A DNA stretch of 64,000 nt from Antedon mediterranea (taxonomy: Eukaryota; Animalia; Echinodermata): positions 6,788,201 to 6,852,200 of the forward strand of contig NC_092679.1 in the NCBI RefSeq assembly GCF_964355755.1. Reading direction: 5' to 3'. Both the position numbers and the translations under genes were made by a program. The notes under the pieces were generated by a model. The model was given only the letters and a program-made list of their open reading frames with translations, ran no database searches and was not told where the DNA came from. Below, one piece after another: positions 54,528 through 64,000 of this stretch. Numbering within the stretch: the first letter of the stretch is position 1; each line of letters opens with the position of its first letter.

Positions 54528-57500
54528 GGTTTTGGCCGTGGTCCTAATGAAGAACAATCTGAACCATCTTTGAAAGTCACTAAACACATTGATTGTATTT
54601 CTTGGAATATTAATGGTATTAATAACAAATTCGCTGATTCTGACTTTATTGAGTATGTTAACAAATTTGACATAATTTGTTTTAGTGAAACATGGGATAA
54701 ATATCGGAACGATTACAATATTAAAGGTTTTACTTGCATATCAAAATTACCAGATAAAACAAGTCGACATTGAAGAAATAGTGGAGGCGTAATGGTATAT
54801 TATAAATTAAATCTCGTCGTTGAAGAACTGCCAAGTGCATCGAATAACATTATTTGGTTAAGGATTACTCTATCCCCAACCGACACTGTTGTAATCGGTT
54901 TTTTGTATAGACCACCAAGTACATCCAGTTACGCGACAACTGACTTTTTTGACATTTTATCTAACGAATATTTGCATTACAGCTCCCAAATATCAGACAT
55001 AGTATATGTAGTTGGCGACTTTAATGGTAGAACTGGTTCGGAGGACGATTACATATCTGCTGACGAAAATGACACATGGAACAATAATCTTTTTCTGGAA
55101 GACAACATCCGGATTGAAAGTAGAACGAATTCTGATTGTATACTAAATTGCTACGGTAAAGATATATTAGAATTTTGCAAAGAAACTGGTATGCGAATCA
55201 CAAATGGTAGAATTGATAAAGAATCATCCAGTGGTTTTACATTTATCAGTTCACATGGTAAAAGTGTATGTGATTACCTTCTTACTAACTCAAACAACTT
55301 TAAACTAATATCTTATTTAAGAATTGATGACCGTGTTGAATCGGATCATATGCCAATTGCCTTTAGTATTCAATTCAAAGACAAAGAACACACCAAAATG
55401 ATTGTCAATGAAGATGACACGTTTACCCAGAGTACGTTCAAATGGTCCAACAGTTACATTAATGCATCCAAAGTCAGATGGGAACATGATATCATTGAAA
55501 CTATTGATAATGATTTTATGAATGCTATCTCTCAAAATAAAATTGATGAGGCAGTTTCACATTTATGTAAAATTTTTGAATACGTATGTAAAGGAATTAA
55601 GTATACACAAACAAGTAAATCTTCAACTTCTACAAAACGAAACGAATGGTTTGATAAAGATTGTAAGAACCTTAAAATGCAGGTTAAACAATCATTAAAG
55701 AGATTTAGAATTATGCGCACTCAACCTTTTTTAAATAATTATATTCAGATAAAAAAGCAATATAAATCGCTATTAAAATGCAAAAAAAATAACTTTCATA
55801 AAAGAATACGCAAACAAATTATCGATTCACTCAATACAAAGGATAGCAAAACGTTTTGGATGAAGTTGAAGACAAAACAGAAATTATCTTGCGAACTTTC
55901 TATTAATCAATGTTATATTCATTTTAAGAACCTATTTAAAAACGATGAGTCTATTGGTAGCGCTGAGTTGCCAAAAATCACAGAATGCCAACAGAATGAA
56001 GACGATGATTATTTAGACCACGACATAACGTTGGATGAAATAAAAAAAGCATTTAATTCTCAAAATAGTGGAAAAGCTCCCGGCATTGATGGAATGAATT
56101 TTGAATTTTTGCTAAACGCCCCCAACATTATTTTTGATATTTTAAAAATTCTTTTTAACGCCATATTTTTAGTTGAAAAATTTCCCAAACAATGGGCAAC
56201 AAGCTTAATCGTTCCAATTTTTAAAAATGGAGATAAAAACAAACCTGAAAATTATAGAGGTATTTCTTTAATTCCAATCCTAGGAAAAATATTTTTAAAT
56301 ATTCTTAATTCTAGGTTAACACAATTTACAAATAGTAAAAAGTTAATTCATGAGGAACAAGCAGGCTTTCGTAAGGGATATAGAACGACAGATAATATAT
56401 TCATTTTAGATACCCTCATCTCTAAATACTTAGATAAAAAGCGGGGTAGGATTTTTGTTTGTTTTGTTGATCTTAAACGTGCCTTTGACTCTATAAATCA
56501 TACACTTTTACTACATAAGTTGAAATGTATCGGTGTTTCAGGCAGAATGTTACACATAATAAATTCCTTATACCAAAACTTATCTGCTCATGTTAAAATT
56601 GGCAACAAACTTAGTCCATCTTTTAATTGTTCGATTGGAGTACAACAAGGTTCTCCGTTGTCGTCTTTACTCTTTAATATTTACATTAATGATTTGAGTG
56701 GTATACTTAATCAGGTAAACGATTTCATTCAAATTGGAGATTGTCATATGAATCATCTTCTTTATGCAGATGACTTAGTGCTTGTTAGTGATACGGTGAA
56801 AGGTCTCCAAAAATTAATAAATAAACTTGAACTTTATTGTGATACTTGGAAACTTACTGTAAACACTACAAAATCCAAAATTATGGTTTTTAAAAATGGC
56901 CGCAATTTAAGGAACATTGAAAAATGGAAGTATAAAAATATTCAATTAAAAATTGTTAATTCGTATAATTATCTTGGTGTTATTTTTAGTTCAAATGGTG
57001 CATGGAACAACTCAATGCAACATAATCAACAAAAAGCAAATCAAAGTTTATTCTGCTTAAAATCATTCATTTATCGTAACTTATCTTTTCTTCCAATTAA
57101 TACATGGAACCATATCTTTGATGTGAAAATACTTCCTATTTTAACGTATGGAAGCGAAATCTGGGGAATGTCAGATAGCACAAACATTATAGAAAAAACA
57201 CATACTAAATTTTGTAGATATTTATTGCAAGTTGGAAAAAATGCACCAAATGCCGCGGTTACTTCTGAGTTAGGTAGATTACCACTTTCTGTGGATTGTT
57301 TAGTTACAGTTATAAGATTTTGGTTACACATTATTACTTTAGATCATGACAGATTCATTTTTAAGTGTTATGAGTTTCAACTTAGAAAAGTTAACCGTAA
57401 TGAGAATTGTTGGGCACAACAGGTTAAACACTTACTCTTTTCTACTGGTTTTGGTTATATATGGTTACAACAATATGTTAATAGTAAAGGTTTATTTTTG

Positions 57501-57959
57501 AGAGAATTTAAGTTGCGCTTATGTGATATTGAAAAACAAAAATGCATTCAAAAATTTAGTTTACATAATAAGTTAAGGCTCTTTTCTCTTTATAAAAAAG
57601 AAATATGTTTAAGTTATCACTTGACCAACATCATTAATTTTAAACAAAGAAGATTATTAACTAAGTTACGTTTAGGGATATTAGAGCTAGAAATTGAAAA
57701 GGGCAGATGGGAGGGTGTAGAAAGATATAAGAGAACGTGTAAATTATGTAAAAAGAACATTGTTGAGGATGAATATCATTTTATTTTGCAATGCACATTT
57801 TACAATGATTTAAGAAAAAGTTTTATTCCAAGATTTATTCGTGTTTTTCCTTCTATTAATAAGCTTTGTTTATTACTTTCCAACACAAATTTTACTTATA
57901 ATTTAGGAAAATACGTCTACTTTGCTTTTGAAAGAAGAAACCATTATCTTAAGTTATAG
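54528..57959 (+). CDS. LINE ORF2p (APE endonuclease, reverse transcriptase, C-terminal CCHC) with one internal TGA at 54771-54773
   Basis: SWNING, FSETW, GDFNGR, SDHMP (EN); KAPGIDG, QAGFRKG, GVQQGSPLS, YADD (RT); CKLC..EDEYHFILQC. Confidence 0.93.
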
Positions 57960-59209
57960 TTTTTTTTTTTTTTATTTGTTTGTATTAGGGCCAAAGGCCA
58001 ATATACTTTGAACCAATAAATTCCCTGAAAAGGGAAAGAAGAAGAACTCGTTTAAATTTAATTTAAAAAAACACATTTTATCGTAATTGTCTAATTGAAT
58101 TTGTTTTAGATAATTGTTTTAAATTTAAAAGTATATAGTAGATTCGTATTAGTTAAGTATAGTTTTATATATTTTGTCATTTTTAAGAGGGCCCCTGGAT
58201 ATCAGATGACGGAAGGAAGGATTACCCTCTATAAATAAAGTTGAAATAAAATAAAATAAATAAATAAATAGAAATCGTAGCTCCGTCAACAAATTTACCA
58301 AATACTTGATGTACGCATGCGTTCGGTAATCGAACGCGCAAACGGTTAACGCGCGCTGAAAATTATATTAACGTTTTGACAAATTGAGTGTATGGCGTGC
58401 TTCTGACGACGACCGTACGAATTTACTTTCCGAAAATTGTTTAAAATTGTAAAACAACCGTAAAACAACGCATTTACAGAGATTGAGATGGAGACGTCTA
58501 GCATCCATACTTTATTAACGTACGGTAAAGTTTGATAAAATGTTTCAATAAAATAATATAGGCTAATAAGAATCACTTGATGGACATGACATGAGTTTAG
58601 AGTATAATATAACGGAGAGAGGCAGCACGGTCTGTCTGTGTGAAGAAGACCGATCTGCCGATCCGTCGTGGTCGTCTCCCGGGTTGTTGTGTTGTTGCTT
58701 CTCCGGCTGTGCGCGCGGCGAATGGTACGTGGTGCGTACACGTAGCCTACGTGTGTTCCACACTGAAATACCGGTATCCCACATTCAATTGTCCAAAACT
58801 AGGCAACTTCTATCTCTCCATACAATATCATTTTAACAGCATTACTTTCTTTCTCCTCCCCATCCATCCTGAATAATTTTCACTCGCGGGTTTGAATGAT
58901 TATACGTAGCCTAGTGTTGCTTCTAAACCTATCCAATTAATAATAAAAATCTACCAACTAGAATTTATAAGCCTAGGCTATCCTATACTGTTTACTGTAT
59001 AAATATTATATAATTAAATCCTACTTCTTCATAATGTATAATGCTTCATTCAGCGTTTTAGTTTAAAGTAGCTTATTTTCGTCTTCATGATGACGGACTT
59101 TAAGCAGATATTAAAATGTTTGCCATGAGCAATCATTGCTTCTGATACCAACGTCTTGTTGTAATTGTATACTTTATAAGCACAGTTATACCAATCCATC
59201 GTATTTCAG

Positions 59210-60466
59210 TAGGCCTAGTTGTGAGGATACGACAGCCAACACCAGCTACAAAATAATAGGCCTAACTGCAGATGAGCCAATAACACCTCCCAAGAGGAAA
59301 TCCCGTCGATTTGATCCGGGTTTGGACATTGCTCTGCTTCAACTGGTTTTCGATAATTGGCCCATTATAAATGTCAAAATATGGGAAGCGATTGCAATGA
59401 AGCTTGGACCTGTTACCCCTCGTGGATGCAAAGACAGATTTCGCAAACTCCTGGCTGCGTTCAAAGCCAATGACATTGGGTCATTAAGAGGGTACGTATA
59501 GAAAATTACTTTTTGTTCACACGTACCGTACCAACATGATCATGATCAGGAAATAGTAAAATTGTACTCTTCCCTGATCATGACCAACATCATTCACCAT
59601 GCTATTCTATTATCACCGCAACAACCAATTCTCACTCTCTAAATTCTCCAAAATTATATTACCGTATATCACATATTTAGTGCAGGGACTATCGAAGAGT
59701 ATAAAGAAAGAGAAAGGCTATTAGTAGAGGTTGGAAGACTTGAGATTGACCAGGCAAGGGAAGGATTTGTATTGCCTGACAAAGTTGCGCCTAGACCTAA
59801 TGTTAAAGAGAAGTCAGTAATAAAAGAACCTCAAAAAGACTCGAATTCAGACAAGCAAGGTAAGAATAATGTCATGGTTAATCGATCGGGGGGGGGGGGC
59901 ATCCATATTTAAGCTTGGTTCCTACTAGAACGCAATTAAGGACGTAAACCGCAACGCAAGAGAATTGACAAATTAAAAGCGATTGCTTATTCGAACTGTT
60001 GCTTTGGTCAACTCGCTTGCGTTGCGGCTTACGTACTTACGTTGCATCCTAGTGGAACGAGCTTAAATAGGGGCCTTGTGCGAAAGGAACAAGTGCACCA
60101 ACAAACCCTAATTCAGGCTGCGTTGTGGAGTCCCAAAGGAGTCTCCTTATACAGGTTGAGTTTCAACAATGTCTTACGATATCATCACGTACGATTCGTT
60201 ATATTTTATATACCGGTACACCATTACATTTTATTTTATTAGATGACAACACTGAACAGTGTGTACTTACTACAGCAGCAGAGAAAAGAAATCGTGTTCT
60301 TGTTGAGTATGTGGAATACTTAAAGATAAAGGCTGAGAGAGAATTTGCACTCAATATAGAAAAAACGGCCATTGAAAGAGAAAGATTCGAACTTGAAAGA
60401 AAAGAGAGAGAGGCGATGATCGCACATGATGCTAATATAATGAAACTCTTACTTCAAACGTTGTAA
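59210..60466 (+). CDS. Myb/SANT-like DNA-binding protein with C-terminal coiled coil (PIF/Harbinger ORF type). Exons 59210-59491, 59681-59859, 60243-60466; possible first exon 58591-58724
   Basis: RFDPGLDIALLQLV..WEAIAMKL..RGCKDRFRKLL..SLRGAGTIEEYKERERLL; phases consistent; C-terminal ERERFELERKERE coil. Confidence 0.8.
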
Positions 60467-61251
60467 CCATGAGGTCATGATGATGATGTTAGAATGTTAA
60501 ACCTACTAGGTGGAAGTAGCATAGGCCTATATTACAATACTATATGTTACTTAGTTGAGTTTTTTGGAAATGCTATTGCTTTCCACACTACGCTGAGACA
60601 CAACGCAAAGAAGCGCGCGTAAGCGTAACGCAAGCTGACCAATGACAAGCGAGAGTTAGAATAATCCATCACTTGTTATTGGTCACATTAAGTCCTTGCG
60701 ATGCGCCTTCGCCATAGTGAGAACTAGTTTGTCGACGTTAACATGCTTTTGTATTTTATTTTCAATGTTACTTTTACTTACTACAGTAATCAATAAAGTC
60801 TCTCTCTCGGTTGTTAAGTGAATTTATTTACTTTCACGGTAGTGCAGTCAAACTGAAACTAAACAGAAATGTATGTCTTCAGATGTATTAAATATATAAA
60901 CCTATGGAACTAAATCATTGAACCAGACACGCAATAAAATAATGAACCCTAAAGATTTGTCCCACAAAAACATAAAAATGAAGATTAATCAGGCATTTTG
61001 CAGTTTTAATAAAGTTATTCACTTCAGTAGGAAAAAACGAACAAAAGTAATAAACGGTTCAATTCAACTAGTTTTTACTTTGATATAGTTTTTTCAGGAA
61101 AGTAGAAAGTGTTTTTTTTCGATCCACTGAATTTTTGGTCAAAGCATGGAGATACCTCCATGGTCAAAGTAAATAAATATTATGTGACATTAAAATTGCA
61201 TATGCAAAAAAAAAGACATTTTCAAAACAAAAACAAATTTCAGGGGGACAA

Positions 61252-61572
61252 TGTTATTATACAAAAGCAACTGTTGTGATTTTAGGTTGGTGCTGGAATG
61301 GCCTGATAATTAAGGCTACTAGGCTTACCTTAACAGTCCCGCTTGTCCTAAATCACACAAGTATCCGAAAGCAGCAAATCCAAATATATTGGTCAAGTTC
61401 GTTATGTCCGTCTCTCTTCAGTTCCTGCTTCGAATAGACCGGTCGGTTCGGGCGGCGTCGAGGTCCCACGTTAACATTTGCATACCCCCTGTATGCAAAT
61501 CAAGCTACCGGGGCGACGCCCTCGTTCGGTCGGAGGGGTGGTCTGTTTACCCAGCGGGCGCCGTTCACAACA
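61252..61572 (-). repeat. 3' LTR (321 bp) of a Gypsy element; polypurine tract at 61573-61582
   Basis: TGTT..AACA termini; ACGGGAGGAG purine tract directly precedes it on the minus strand; abrupt GC shift; interrupts a MITE at GGGACAA. Confidence 0.85.
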
Positions 61573-61858
61573 CTCCTCCCGTGTTTGAAAAGCGGGCACC
61601 CCGTCCTGGATCCACCTCGGAGGTGAACCGGGTGATTTTCGTACGTGAAAAATACCCGATACCCGTAGCTATGTAGACCGCTTCTAACGATCCCTTCAGG
61701 TAGTCACTGGCCGTGGGACATGCCTGTAGCACCGTCCTCCGCTTCCCTGGATACCTGAAAGATATAAATGAAAATAAATGTAAAACAGAACCATGTTCTT
61801 TTGAAACGGACAATTTCTGGAAAAACTGAAAACTTCTGGTTGTGGGTGAGCCAGGGGC

Positions 61859-63394
61859 TCAAAGGAGATCTCGACCATTCTTCCATGTCCGATCAATGAC
61901 CTGCATGGGGCTCCGGTCGAGCACCTGTCCCACGGCGACGGCGGTCGCCGCCCACAACAGATGAGGTGCTCCGACTGGGTATCCGGCAGGAGGATAGTCC
62001 GGTCCGTTGGACCCCATCAGCAATCGCCGATCTTCATTGGTAGCGATGAAACGCAGGCCCTTGCGTTGATCGGCCGTAAAGCCAGTCACTCGGCTGGTCA
62101 CGCTAAAGTATGTCCTGGGGAAATGTCGGAGGTAGGCGATTGCTACGGCTTCCGTGGAAGCGTAGTCTGCCAGAAGCAGCCGCTGTTCCTTCAACACACA
62201 ACTCAGACGTAGGATGTCCAAGACGCGATAGTAGCACTCCTCCCCAGTGACATCGCCTTGAACTCCAGAGACTTCAAGACACAGGATGCGGTGGTGGCGG
62301 CCGTCCAAGCAACGACCCAACACCTTCTTTAGCAGCTGATCTTGTCTCGGCCAATCCGTAGGCGGGGCCGAATGGTCCAACCCCACTCTCCCGATTACTC
62401 GAACATCTCGAGTTCGGGCTAAGGCCAGAAGCCTATCGAATTGGACCGTTGTCGGCGAGTAGCCAGGAGCCACTCCCAAGCCCACCGCACAGCCGTTCCT
62501 CGCCAGTCCGCCAATCTCCCGCTCGGTGGGTAAGTGGTTGGATTGACAAACAGGGCAATCCCGCCTACCACTTCCACAGGTTGTGTTCCACTTCTCACCC
62601 GCACCGCTCGCTCCACGTCCCAGAGGTCCCCTCGTCGGGAGAGTTGCAGGTCCCTCTGCAACCGGTCCAGATGGAAACAGGCGTCAAACACTTTGGGCGC
62701 CGAACCAAGCGAGGCCGATGTACCCTGCACAATCGGTGGCGCCGCCACTGATCTACCATCCTTCGGTGCCGGGGCATCGCGCTTGGTCGGTCGCTCTCCA
62801 TGTTCGCCACCTGCCGCTTTCCTCTTCGTCGACTTTTTGGCGGTCTGGTCCACTGCCGGCTCCTCCTCCTCAGCCCGACGACCACACTCCTTCACCAGCT
62901 CTTCACCAAAAGAAGCGATGAGAGCAATCGCACAGCGCCAGTGTATGAGAGCCGACGGGTGTCCTGCCTTTACCAAGGCCCTCCGCTGCCAAGCTGGTGA
63001 GTGCCCGCCACTGCACTCGTGCCCTCCGCCAAGAACTTTGTTCCCGTGGTCGAAAACATGCCGGGGCATGCATCTTCGTGACGTGGACCCGCATGTTGCT
63101 CACTGGACCACATCCCAGATGGCATTTTGGTTTCTGCTTGGCTGGGGTGCTCGCCACCGGGCAAGCCCCTCTCGTATCCCCAGCCACTGCTTGCTCTTTC
63201 GGGGTCATCAGATGGAAGATTGGTTTCCCCTTGGCCGGGGTGGTCGCCGCCGGGCAAGCCCCTCCCGTATCCCCAGCCACCGCTTCCCCTTTCGGGGTCG
63301 GTTCCTCCTGTGCACCCGGACTAGCCAGGAGCACATCTTCCTCCATCTCGGAAATGTCCGTCTCACTTCCGTCAGCGAACGGTAACTGATCCAT
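61859..63394 (-). pseudogene. Extra Gypsy ORF: acidic N-terminus, C2H2-like finger and TatD-like TIM barrel; two frameshifts (~62975, ~62530)
   Basis: CHLGC..HVTKMH; KVFDACFHLD, GLGVAP, VIGRVGLDH, YFSVT, RLLMGSNGPDY and TWKNGRDL align in order with TatD motifs DxHxHL, GxHP, IGExGLD, YISF, RLLxETDxPY and TxxNAxxL. Confidence 0.78.
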
Positions 63395-63427
63395 ATCTGA
63401 GGGAGAAGAGAAGGTAAACGTGAGTAC

Positions 63428-64000
63428 TTAATTGTTAACTGAGGACTTGCAGTCCGCACATCGATATAAGTCGATGTCCAAGGCCTCAGCTGGTGCAATA
63501 TTCACACATGCACCGTGGTACCACACCTCGCAATAGTCACATTGTATCATAAATGAGCCGTCCCAGGGCTGGCGACATAGACAATACAACGGTCCCGCAT
63601 CCGGATCTGTAGGTGAAGAAAGAGAAGGTAAGTTAAAATCAGCCAGCCATTTAGGAAGCTGTCGATCCCGACAGGGCTTCAACTTGTCATGATTTAAAAC
63701 CACCGTCTTGTTTCTCAGCTGCACCTGAAATAAACAAGAACTAATAACCTTAGTAATAATACCGGGCCTCTTCCAGGGGGGACACAATTTCTTGCACTTC
63801 CCCCGAGGGGTAGCGTTGTCAAGAACGTAGACTTTGTCCCCACATTGGTATGGACGTTCCAGCACTCGAAGATCATAGTCCCGTTTCATTCTCTTCTGAG
63901 TCTGCTTCAGCGTTTCCCTAGCGATGCCATGGGCATCACGGATCGCTTTTACCAAATCTGCAACGTAGGTGGCGGCTTCCTGCTCATCGGTGGACCGGCA
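63428..64000 (-). CDS. Gypsy pol C-terminus: integrase SH3-like/GPF-Y region plus PHD finger
   Basis: [31 protein letters not shown] followed by C4HC3 [34 protein letters not shown]. Confidence 0.9.

Follow-up and report, generated by a model that had tools for sequence, protein, structure and literature searches.

What is the protein encoded behind pol in a Gypsy-type element of Antedon mediterranea, and what would such an element do with a nuclease barrel that has lost nearly all of its metal ligands? The window analyzed here is a stretch of 64,000 nucleotides, the last 2.7 kb of which is a G+C-rich insertion on the minus strand (54-59% G+C, against ~33% for most of the window). This insertion is a Ty3/Gypsy LTR retrotransposon in which, up to the LTR, pol with a PHD finger, a third open reading frame (ORF3) and a polypurine tract follow one another. 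Only the last 190 codons of pol are inside the window; the order protease, reverse transcriptase (RT), RNase H, integrase is present in relatives at 41-66% identity. The parts of the element, apart from ORF3 itself, are as follows.

63428..64000, minus strand: 3' end of pol, with the integrase C-terminal region and an in-frame PHD finger (Pfam PHD, 3e-9)
63430-63428, minus strand: pol stop codon, TAA
61573..61580, minus strand: polypurine tract GGGAGGAG, directly abutting the LTR; an identical or near-identical tract precedes the LTR in related elements
61272..61572, minus strand: 3' LTR of 301 nt, TG...CA, with 8-nt inverted ends; sister contigs place LTR sequence upstream of internal TatD pieces, one match starting from 61571

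The spacing from the ORF3 stop to the purine tract and LTR is 280 nt, and in relatives a PBS-like TGG stands right after the LTR end. The LTR holds two ATGs only, at 61483 and 61477. Inside it (61500-61476, minus strand), the octamers ATTTGCAT and ATGCAAAT lie inverted relative to each other; we take them to be POU-factor sites. The initial annotation had placed ORF3 third among the genes of a Gypsy element, where env would be, and the LTR, the purine tract and the PHD-bearing pol, together with the same arrangement at 12 of 16 related loci, bear this out. The combination of an integrase with a PHD finger presumably recalls Ginger-type DNA transposons, a reading that we rejected given the LTR, the purine tract and the RT-bearing relatives. 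The element is present in multiple copies: all 30 bins are spanned by contigs from organisms A and B, with the depth of the internal part several-fold over that of the unique flank. Over 61290-63700, contig records 9 (X3) and 16 (X8) represent diverged, internally deleted derivatives, with LTR sequence 250-600 letters ahead of the TatD pieces.

Other parts of the window are rich in repeats as well. Adjoining the LTR is a very high-copy short repeat (60994-61214) with a depth hundreds of times that of the flank. A non-LTR retrotransposon with an open endonuclease-RT frame of 1061 codons occupies 54774-57959 on the plus strand (Pfam RVT_1, 9e-37), and short ORFs at 59115-60466 (plus strand), for which there was no Pfam match, seem to us to resemble fragments of a transposon accessory gene of the Myb/SANT type. 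Minisatellite arrays lie at 5.8-6.7 kb (16-20-nt units), 10.1-11.4 kb (17 nt), 18.6-19.4 kb (64 nt) and 45.7-46.0 kb (15-16 nt), and short elements with inverted repeats, belonging to one family, are dispersed across the window.

ORF3 can be read from end to end only across two breaks, which divide it into three pieces.

63394-61862, minus strand, stop at 61861-61859: ORF3, 511 codons end to end, three pieces, two frame changes (near 62960 and 62527)
62961..63394, minus strand: piece 1, an acidic Pro/Ala-rich start, a 93-nt duplication, a C2H2-like finger and the first part of a helical domain
62958..62961, minus strand: break 1, ~45-50 helical-domain codons missing plus a frame change (from N-domain profile coverage and loose ends in sister contigs)
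62528..62958, minus strand: piece 2, the end of the helical domain (LIHW motif), a basic NLS-like linker and the first TatD strands
61859..62527, minus strand: piece 3, starting at break 2, the remaining TatD barrel with its ligands replaced

The acidic start, the duplicated motif (75 of 93 nt identical between copies), the C2H2-like finger (C-x3-C-x8-H-x4-H-x-P) and the TatD motifs in their order were all recovered as first annotated, and the profile search proposed for TatD places piece 3 above the cut-off of Pfam TatD_DNase (E 9.3e-7; 28.9 bits, cut-off 27). This is the sole Pfam family above cut-off in the window ORF3, and against the family profile E is 1.9e-57. Env families gave no Pfam match in the window ORF3 or in its long relatives, and no segment resembling a membrane anchor was found in the window pieces, where the highest 19-residue Kyte-Doolittle mean is 1.39 (0.97-1.6 in seven relatives). 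The linker between the N-terminal domain and the barrel holds a basic stretch, KKSTKRK, which we regard as NLS-like.

The two breaks differ in kind. At the first, the window pieces match positions 7-59 and ~103-129 of the 137-position N-domain profile, leaving a gap of ~45-50, and sister contigs show loose ends of ~90 letters on either side of 62958-62961; break 1 is accordingly a deletion in the window copy rather than a plain frameshift. The second, near 62527, appears as a length difference relative to contigs of X1, X3, X9 and X11, and is read through by P0004, a partial gene model of Antedon mediterranea that is 92-95% identical to the window ORF3 and the closest named record. Break 2 thus reads as a frameshift private to the window copy, from which the sister copies are free. 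Of the two frameshifts and ~510 codons originally proposed, only the second is upheld as a simple frameshift, and, with ~45-50 codons deleted at the first, 510 codons underestimates the length of the gene. The window copy is broken and would yield no full protein; the same ORF is present elsewhere, in the sister P0004 and behind pol at 12 of the 16 related loci.

With the frame restored, the barrel retains one of its eight active-site residues, the second His of HxH (62673). The other seven, listed below, were all noted initially, and each replacement is real.

62679, minus strand: first His of HxH replaced by Cys
62470, minus strand: His of GxHP replaced by Ala
62389, minus strand: Glu of IGE (the bridging Glu) replaced by Arg
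62275, minus strand: later His replaced by Glu
62170, minus strand: later His replaced by Ala
62014, minus strand: Glu of ETD replaced by Gly
62008, minus strand: Asp of ETD replaced by Asn

The replaced residues are, in other words, the bridging Glu, both ETD acids and four of the five His, and five of the seven replacements require at least two base changes. P0004, the model of which lacks the first motif, has all six replacements that fall within its span. The nearest other relative, the crinoid protein P0001 (56% identical), retains all eight ligands; the family has an HxH-type first motif, and the ligands are intact in all 12 related loci with ORF3. The window and 117 of 153 proteins supplied 118 near-complete domains; of these, 84 are without replacement at the aligned positions, and at least four replacements occur in 12, the window and P0004 among them. 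The dead active site is a trait of the window lineage, not the norm of the clade. The designation of ORF3 as an accessory pseudo-nuclease accordingly holds for this lineage, given that P0004 shares the replacements, and fails for the class, in which the ligands persist in P0001, at 12 of 12 loci and in 84 of 118 domains; with most of the family ligand-intact, catalysis evidently matters in the clade. Another family member from Antedon, P0005, has most of its ligands intact.

Mutants of human TatD proteins indicate what such replacements would do. According to PMC10085689, TATDN1/3 depend on the bridging Glu and on the Asp of ETD, replacing the bridging Glu with Ala lowers both activities, and the ETD Asp mutant of TATDN3 loses activity 30-fold, with single His mutants being mild; PMC10711561 reports that two Mg-binding Glu are required in TATDN2. 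Given the joint loss of all these ligands and an Arg in place of the bridging Glu, metal-dependent cleavage is unlikely, and the TatD domain of the window lineage is, by analogy with these mutants, likely to be catalytically dead.

The placement of such a protein behind a PHD-bearing pol is not peculiar to this copy. A search with the barrel gave 229 representatives at 50% clustering, from 150 of which the family members were drawn; the records of 26 were looked up, and those with a named source trace to crinoids, a sea star, a scallop, a brachiopod and symbiont genome bins. When 40 long members were scanned against Pfam, TatD was found in all 40 and a further Pfam family in two. Integrase core and PHD occur together in 24 of 26 matches to the pol end of the window and, as the PHD finger is fused in frame to pol in relatives, we rejected a separately spliced PHD exon as a trait of the clade. 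Scanning genome bins with the pol-PHD alignment yielded 16 loci, 12 of them with the N-terminal domain and TatD behind pol on the same strand. Among the remaining four loci, L115 corresponds to a host-type CXXC-PHD gene, neither PHD nor ORF3 is present in L116, the record of L106 stops 143 nt past pol, and that of L109 stops within a 323-codon ORF. L102 and L103 encode gag, protease, RT, RNase H, integrase and PHD in Gypsy order. The layout of pol-PHD, ORF3, purine tract and LTR is a trait of this clade. The gag of L102, L103, L104, L105, L106, L111 and L116 opens with a helix-hairpin-helix, above the cut-off of Pfam HHH_3 in four of the seven.

The Gypsy loci L101-L114 sit in records filed as bacterial bins, and the ORF3 products P0127 and P0186 are named bacterial TatD hydrolases. 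Judging from their gene content, the 16 loci in bacterial bins are probably contaminating DNA of the host animals. Searches of viral and metagenome contigs with P0006, A2, P0164 and A4 returned nothing, or barrel-only TatD matches at 23-36% identity; we rejected the latter as family members because they resemble ordinary microbial TatD, and ten of them served as an outgroup.

How ORF3 is expressed is suggested by the sequences flanking it, for which errantiviruses offer a precedent: env of these elements is expressed from a spliced subgenomic RNA. The candidate splice signals of the window are the following.

63397..63426, minus strand: ORF3 branch point TACTCAC (from 63426), pyrimidine tract and acceptor AG (ending at 63397), 2 nt ahead of the ATG at 63394
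61323..61331, minus strand: LTR splice donor AAG/GTAAGC, donor position 61328, 57 nt ahead of the LTR end
63607..63636, minus strand: second acceptor-like site, in the integrase-PHD linker, sharing the 12-mer TTACCTTCTCTT with the ORF3 acceptor
61755..61784, minus strand: third acceptor-like site, past the ORF3 stop; P0004 ends in peptide after it

The signals after the pol stop that had been pointed out previously, from branch point to ATG, were found again at the same positions. By the criterion of a pyrimidine tract plus YAG, 12 of 13 elements, counting the window together with 12 loci and excluding L106, L114, L115 and L116, have an acceptor 0-16 nt upstream of the ATG that opens a long ORF, compared with 61 of 1147 other ATGs (5.3%); the single miss is L101, in which the site is present and the frame is broken. 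The offsets from acceptor to ATG vary and the spacers between pol and ORF3 cannot be aligned among elements, which fits a non-coding leader or first exon. A donor lies no more than 110 nt from the LTR end in nine of nine elements (L101, L107, L108 and L114, without a defined LTR end, being excluded), against 121 of 959 random windows (12.6%); with the strict GTRAG motif it is found in seven of the nine. The distance from donor to LTR end is 55-57 nt in three elements, the window included. Since both splice criteria were defined with the sequences already in view, the LTR ends were placed by eye and the elements are kin to one another, binomial P values overstate these enrichments. Together, the conserved acceptor and the LTR donor support a spliced subgenomic message as the likely source of ORF3 protein. 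The partner of the ORF3 acceptor would be the copy of the donor at 61323..61331 in the 5' LTR, which lies outside the window. The contigs X8 and X9 show no joint at the acceptors, a result that, for contigs that need not derive from RNA, counts neither for nor against splicing.

The competing explanation is that ORF3 is expressed without splicing: ribosomes might read through the pol stop or re-initiate past it, or an internal promoter might be used. Piece 1 of the window is in the frame of pol, one stop away, and the spacers are short in most relatives, as this explanation would have it, but frame and spacer vary among relatives and the acceptor is kept; we consider it improbable. The second acceptor-like site is absent from 11 of 12 related loci and is possibly a crinoid-specific duplicate of the acceptor; a comparable integrase-PHD linker, rich in Ser, Phe and Pro, occurs in P0160, a crinoid relative. 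A weak donor near 61924 is where the P0004 model abandons the TatD frame, before it reaches the peptide beyond the third site.

Structure predictions were run on a relative, P0006. The N-terminal domain of P0006 was predicted by AlphaFold as a confident 150-residue unit (pLDDT 92, pTM 0.87), in which two short strands and a helix bearing the Cys and His residues are followed by helices, and it is joined to the barrel by a disordered stretch. The two Cys and two His of the finger are nearly invariant in the family; their spacing is shorter than in the classical C2H2 finger (C-x2-4-C-x12-H-x3-5-H), and no Pfam zinc-finger family was matched. In searches for structural relatives of the N-terminal domain, Foldseek gave none below E 1.3, the best VIA Z was 3.4 and the best Atlas score 0.75, values that do not imply a novel fold. 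The barrel model of P0006 matched YcfH/TatD structures (Foldseek E 2e-16, TM 0.85 by target).

If the barrel does not cut, its replacements could reflect decay, selection or drift under a constraint on the fold. Random decay of a pseudogene, confined to a single dead copy, would agree with the deletion and the frameshift of the window copy. Yet a sister that is 92-95% identical carries the same replacements without break 2, and the conserved non-ligand columns were spared: of 22 such columns, conserved at 85% or more, the window keeps 19, compared with one of the eight ligands (Fisher P 4e-4; P 0.003 and 0.006 at looser conservation cut-offs). Nor is any ligand codon among the best-supported differences between sister copies (the best 40 of 392 and the best 40 of 182). 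Decay of this sort is thus very improbable. Among the best-supported differences listed, the excess at third positions is borderline (11 of 21, P 0.056).

The comparison with P0001 points the same way, with identity at 21 of 22 (95%) conserved columns, 35 of 54 moderately conserved ones and 51 of 128 (40%) of the most variable. Seven changes among eight ligands would be unexpected at the average rate (P 0.02) and more so at the rate of the columns shared by crinoids (P 0.002), but would be unremarkable if the ligands changed as fast as the most variable columns (P 0.11). Given that the ligands changed at the rate of unconstrained columns and that the conserved columns were spared, the ligands would have been saturated by drift while the frame of the barrel stayed constrained. 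This pattern in the alignments fits purifying selection on the fold that would have continued after catalysis was lost; positive selection, or selection for inactivity, is not needed. The initial proposal of selection rather than decay is therefore retained in part, as the replacements are shared and the conserved columns spared, and dropped as far as selection for inactivity is concerned, P = 0.11 being compatible with relaxed constraint.

The window lineage is nested, with support of 100, in a crinoid clade of ligand-bearing proteins, so that the loss of ligands is derived. It is also not the only loss: on a tree of 39 proteins, a quick tree with the ligand columns left in, nine proteins with at least five losses require six changes, at least four of them imposed by starred branches. 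One supported ligand-less clade comprises P0027, P0057 and P0127, three members at less than 50% identity. On this tree, the losses appear to recur in the family, at least four times.

A constrained fold need not be a functional one. The barrel could be a structural passenger, folded for the sake of stability only and binding nothing, with the zinc-finger/helical domain doing the work. The rate of ligand loss at unconstrained columns (P 0.11), the drift at surface positions seen in the moderately conserved columns and the conservation of an N-terminal domain predicted to fold alone would all be accommodated in this way. Against it, a stop codon would be a cheaper way to remove the barrel, and ligand-less proteins, including those of the three-member clade, retain near-full barrels; we consider the passenger explanation unlikely.

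We moderately favor, instead, a mechanism in which this Gypsy clade expresses ORF3 from a spliced subgenomic RNA and the dead TatD of the window lineage is a non-cutting module that binds nucleic acids or serves as a scaffold. Splicing would join the 5' LTR donor to the acceptor at 63397 and remove the PBS, gag and pol, so that the ORF3 message could be neither packaged as a genome nor primed, and the first ATG past the joint would start ORF3. With the ligands replaced and the structural positions kept, the protein would not perform metal-dependent cleavage, as extrapolated from TatD mutagenesis. The weakest step concerns the ancestral active protein, which may have trimmed or repaired replication intermediates, such as the ends of single-stranded DNA, abasic sites or hybrids of RNA and DNA; the dead form might retain the same substrates, or act as a scaffold together with the zinc-finger/helical domain. 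Activities described for TatD enzymes include 3'-5' exonuclease on single-stranded DNA and abasic-site cleavage (PMC10085689) and removal of RNA from R-loops (PMC10711561), and these known substrates are plausible on retrotransposon intermediates.

A third possibility is that the dead barrel acts as a decoy or dominant-negative: it would compete with a TatD of the host, or with active TatD proteins encoded by other element families in that genome, and shield the element's own intermediates. That P0005, with its ligands mostly intact, is encoded by the same species would suit such competition, and repeated losses fit a conflict; against it, the replacements do not call for positive selection, the host partner is hypothetical, and TatD enzymes are not known to be obligate oligomers. 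We regard the decoy as somewhat less likely still than the passenger, and it is again with moderate confidence that we rank the non-cutting binder or scaffold ahead of both. A broader scenario, which we offer tentatively, is that of an old and widespread Gypsy clade of marine invertebrates with a zinc-binding-helical/TatD protein spliced from the LTR donor, in which the barrel was repeatedly turned into a pseudo-enzyme since its main job would be binding, as a shield or decoy, in conflict with the host.

Among known systems, errantiviruses such as Drosophila gypsy resemble the window element in the position of env after pol and, by our reconstruction, in the use of a spliced subgenomic RNA; in contrast to env, ORF3 of the window has no strongly hydrophobic segment and matches no env family. 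In the passages of PMC13524379 that were consulted, no Gypsy element with env is reported from echinoderms. The closest parallels are the Juno and Vesta LTR retrotransposons of bdelloid rotifers, with enzymatic ORF3s (a DEDDy exonuclease and a GDSL esterase); ORF3s, according to the same article, are typically expressed from spliced messages (PMC5408684). The window element has in common with these a non-env ORF3 that follows pol of a Gypsy type, a nuclease fold and the absence of a transmembrane segment. Unlike them, the window ORF3 has a TatD barrel rather than a DEDDy fold, along with a C2H2-like finger and a helical domain, and belongs with a clade of pol-PHD elements that spans echinoderms and molluscs; furthermore, the Juno/Vesta ORF3s keep their catalytic residues, whereas the window lineage does not. 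TatD is not mentioned in the portion of PMC5408684 that was consulted. With the group II (HxH) TatD nucleases (YcfH, YjjV, TATDN2 and TATDN3; PMC10085689), the family shares the Pfam TatD_DNase match, the HxH-type motif and the fold of the P0006 model; it differs in being encoded by mobile elements and, in the window lineage, in its seven replaced ligands (the bridging Glu, both acids of ETD and four His). Neither TatD nor PHD occurs in PMC6338049 and PMC6238403 (word searches) or in PMC13524379, and a literature search on TatD with retrotransposon, or Gypsy with PHD, the scope of which was titles and the starts of abstracts, with Repbase Reports, subscription journals and supplements outside it, returned no paper on the element. 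Thus, non-env enzymatic ORF3s are known, and a TatD-bearing ORF3 with a dead active site is apparently undescribed.

The functions of the extra genes of retrotransposons are, in general, mostly unknown. The family described here provides natural pairs of active and dead forms of the same nuclease, one pair being found within a single species and the pairs having several origins, which would make the role of ORF3 testable by comparison. It also bears on gene annotation: many "uncharacterized TatD" genes of echinoderms and molluscs, along with some that symbiont bins file as bacterial, are probably transposon cargo.
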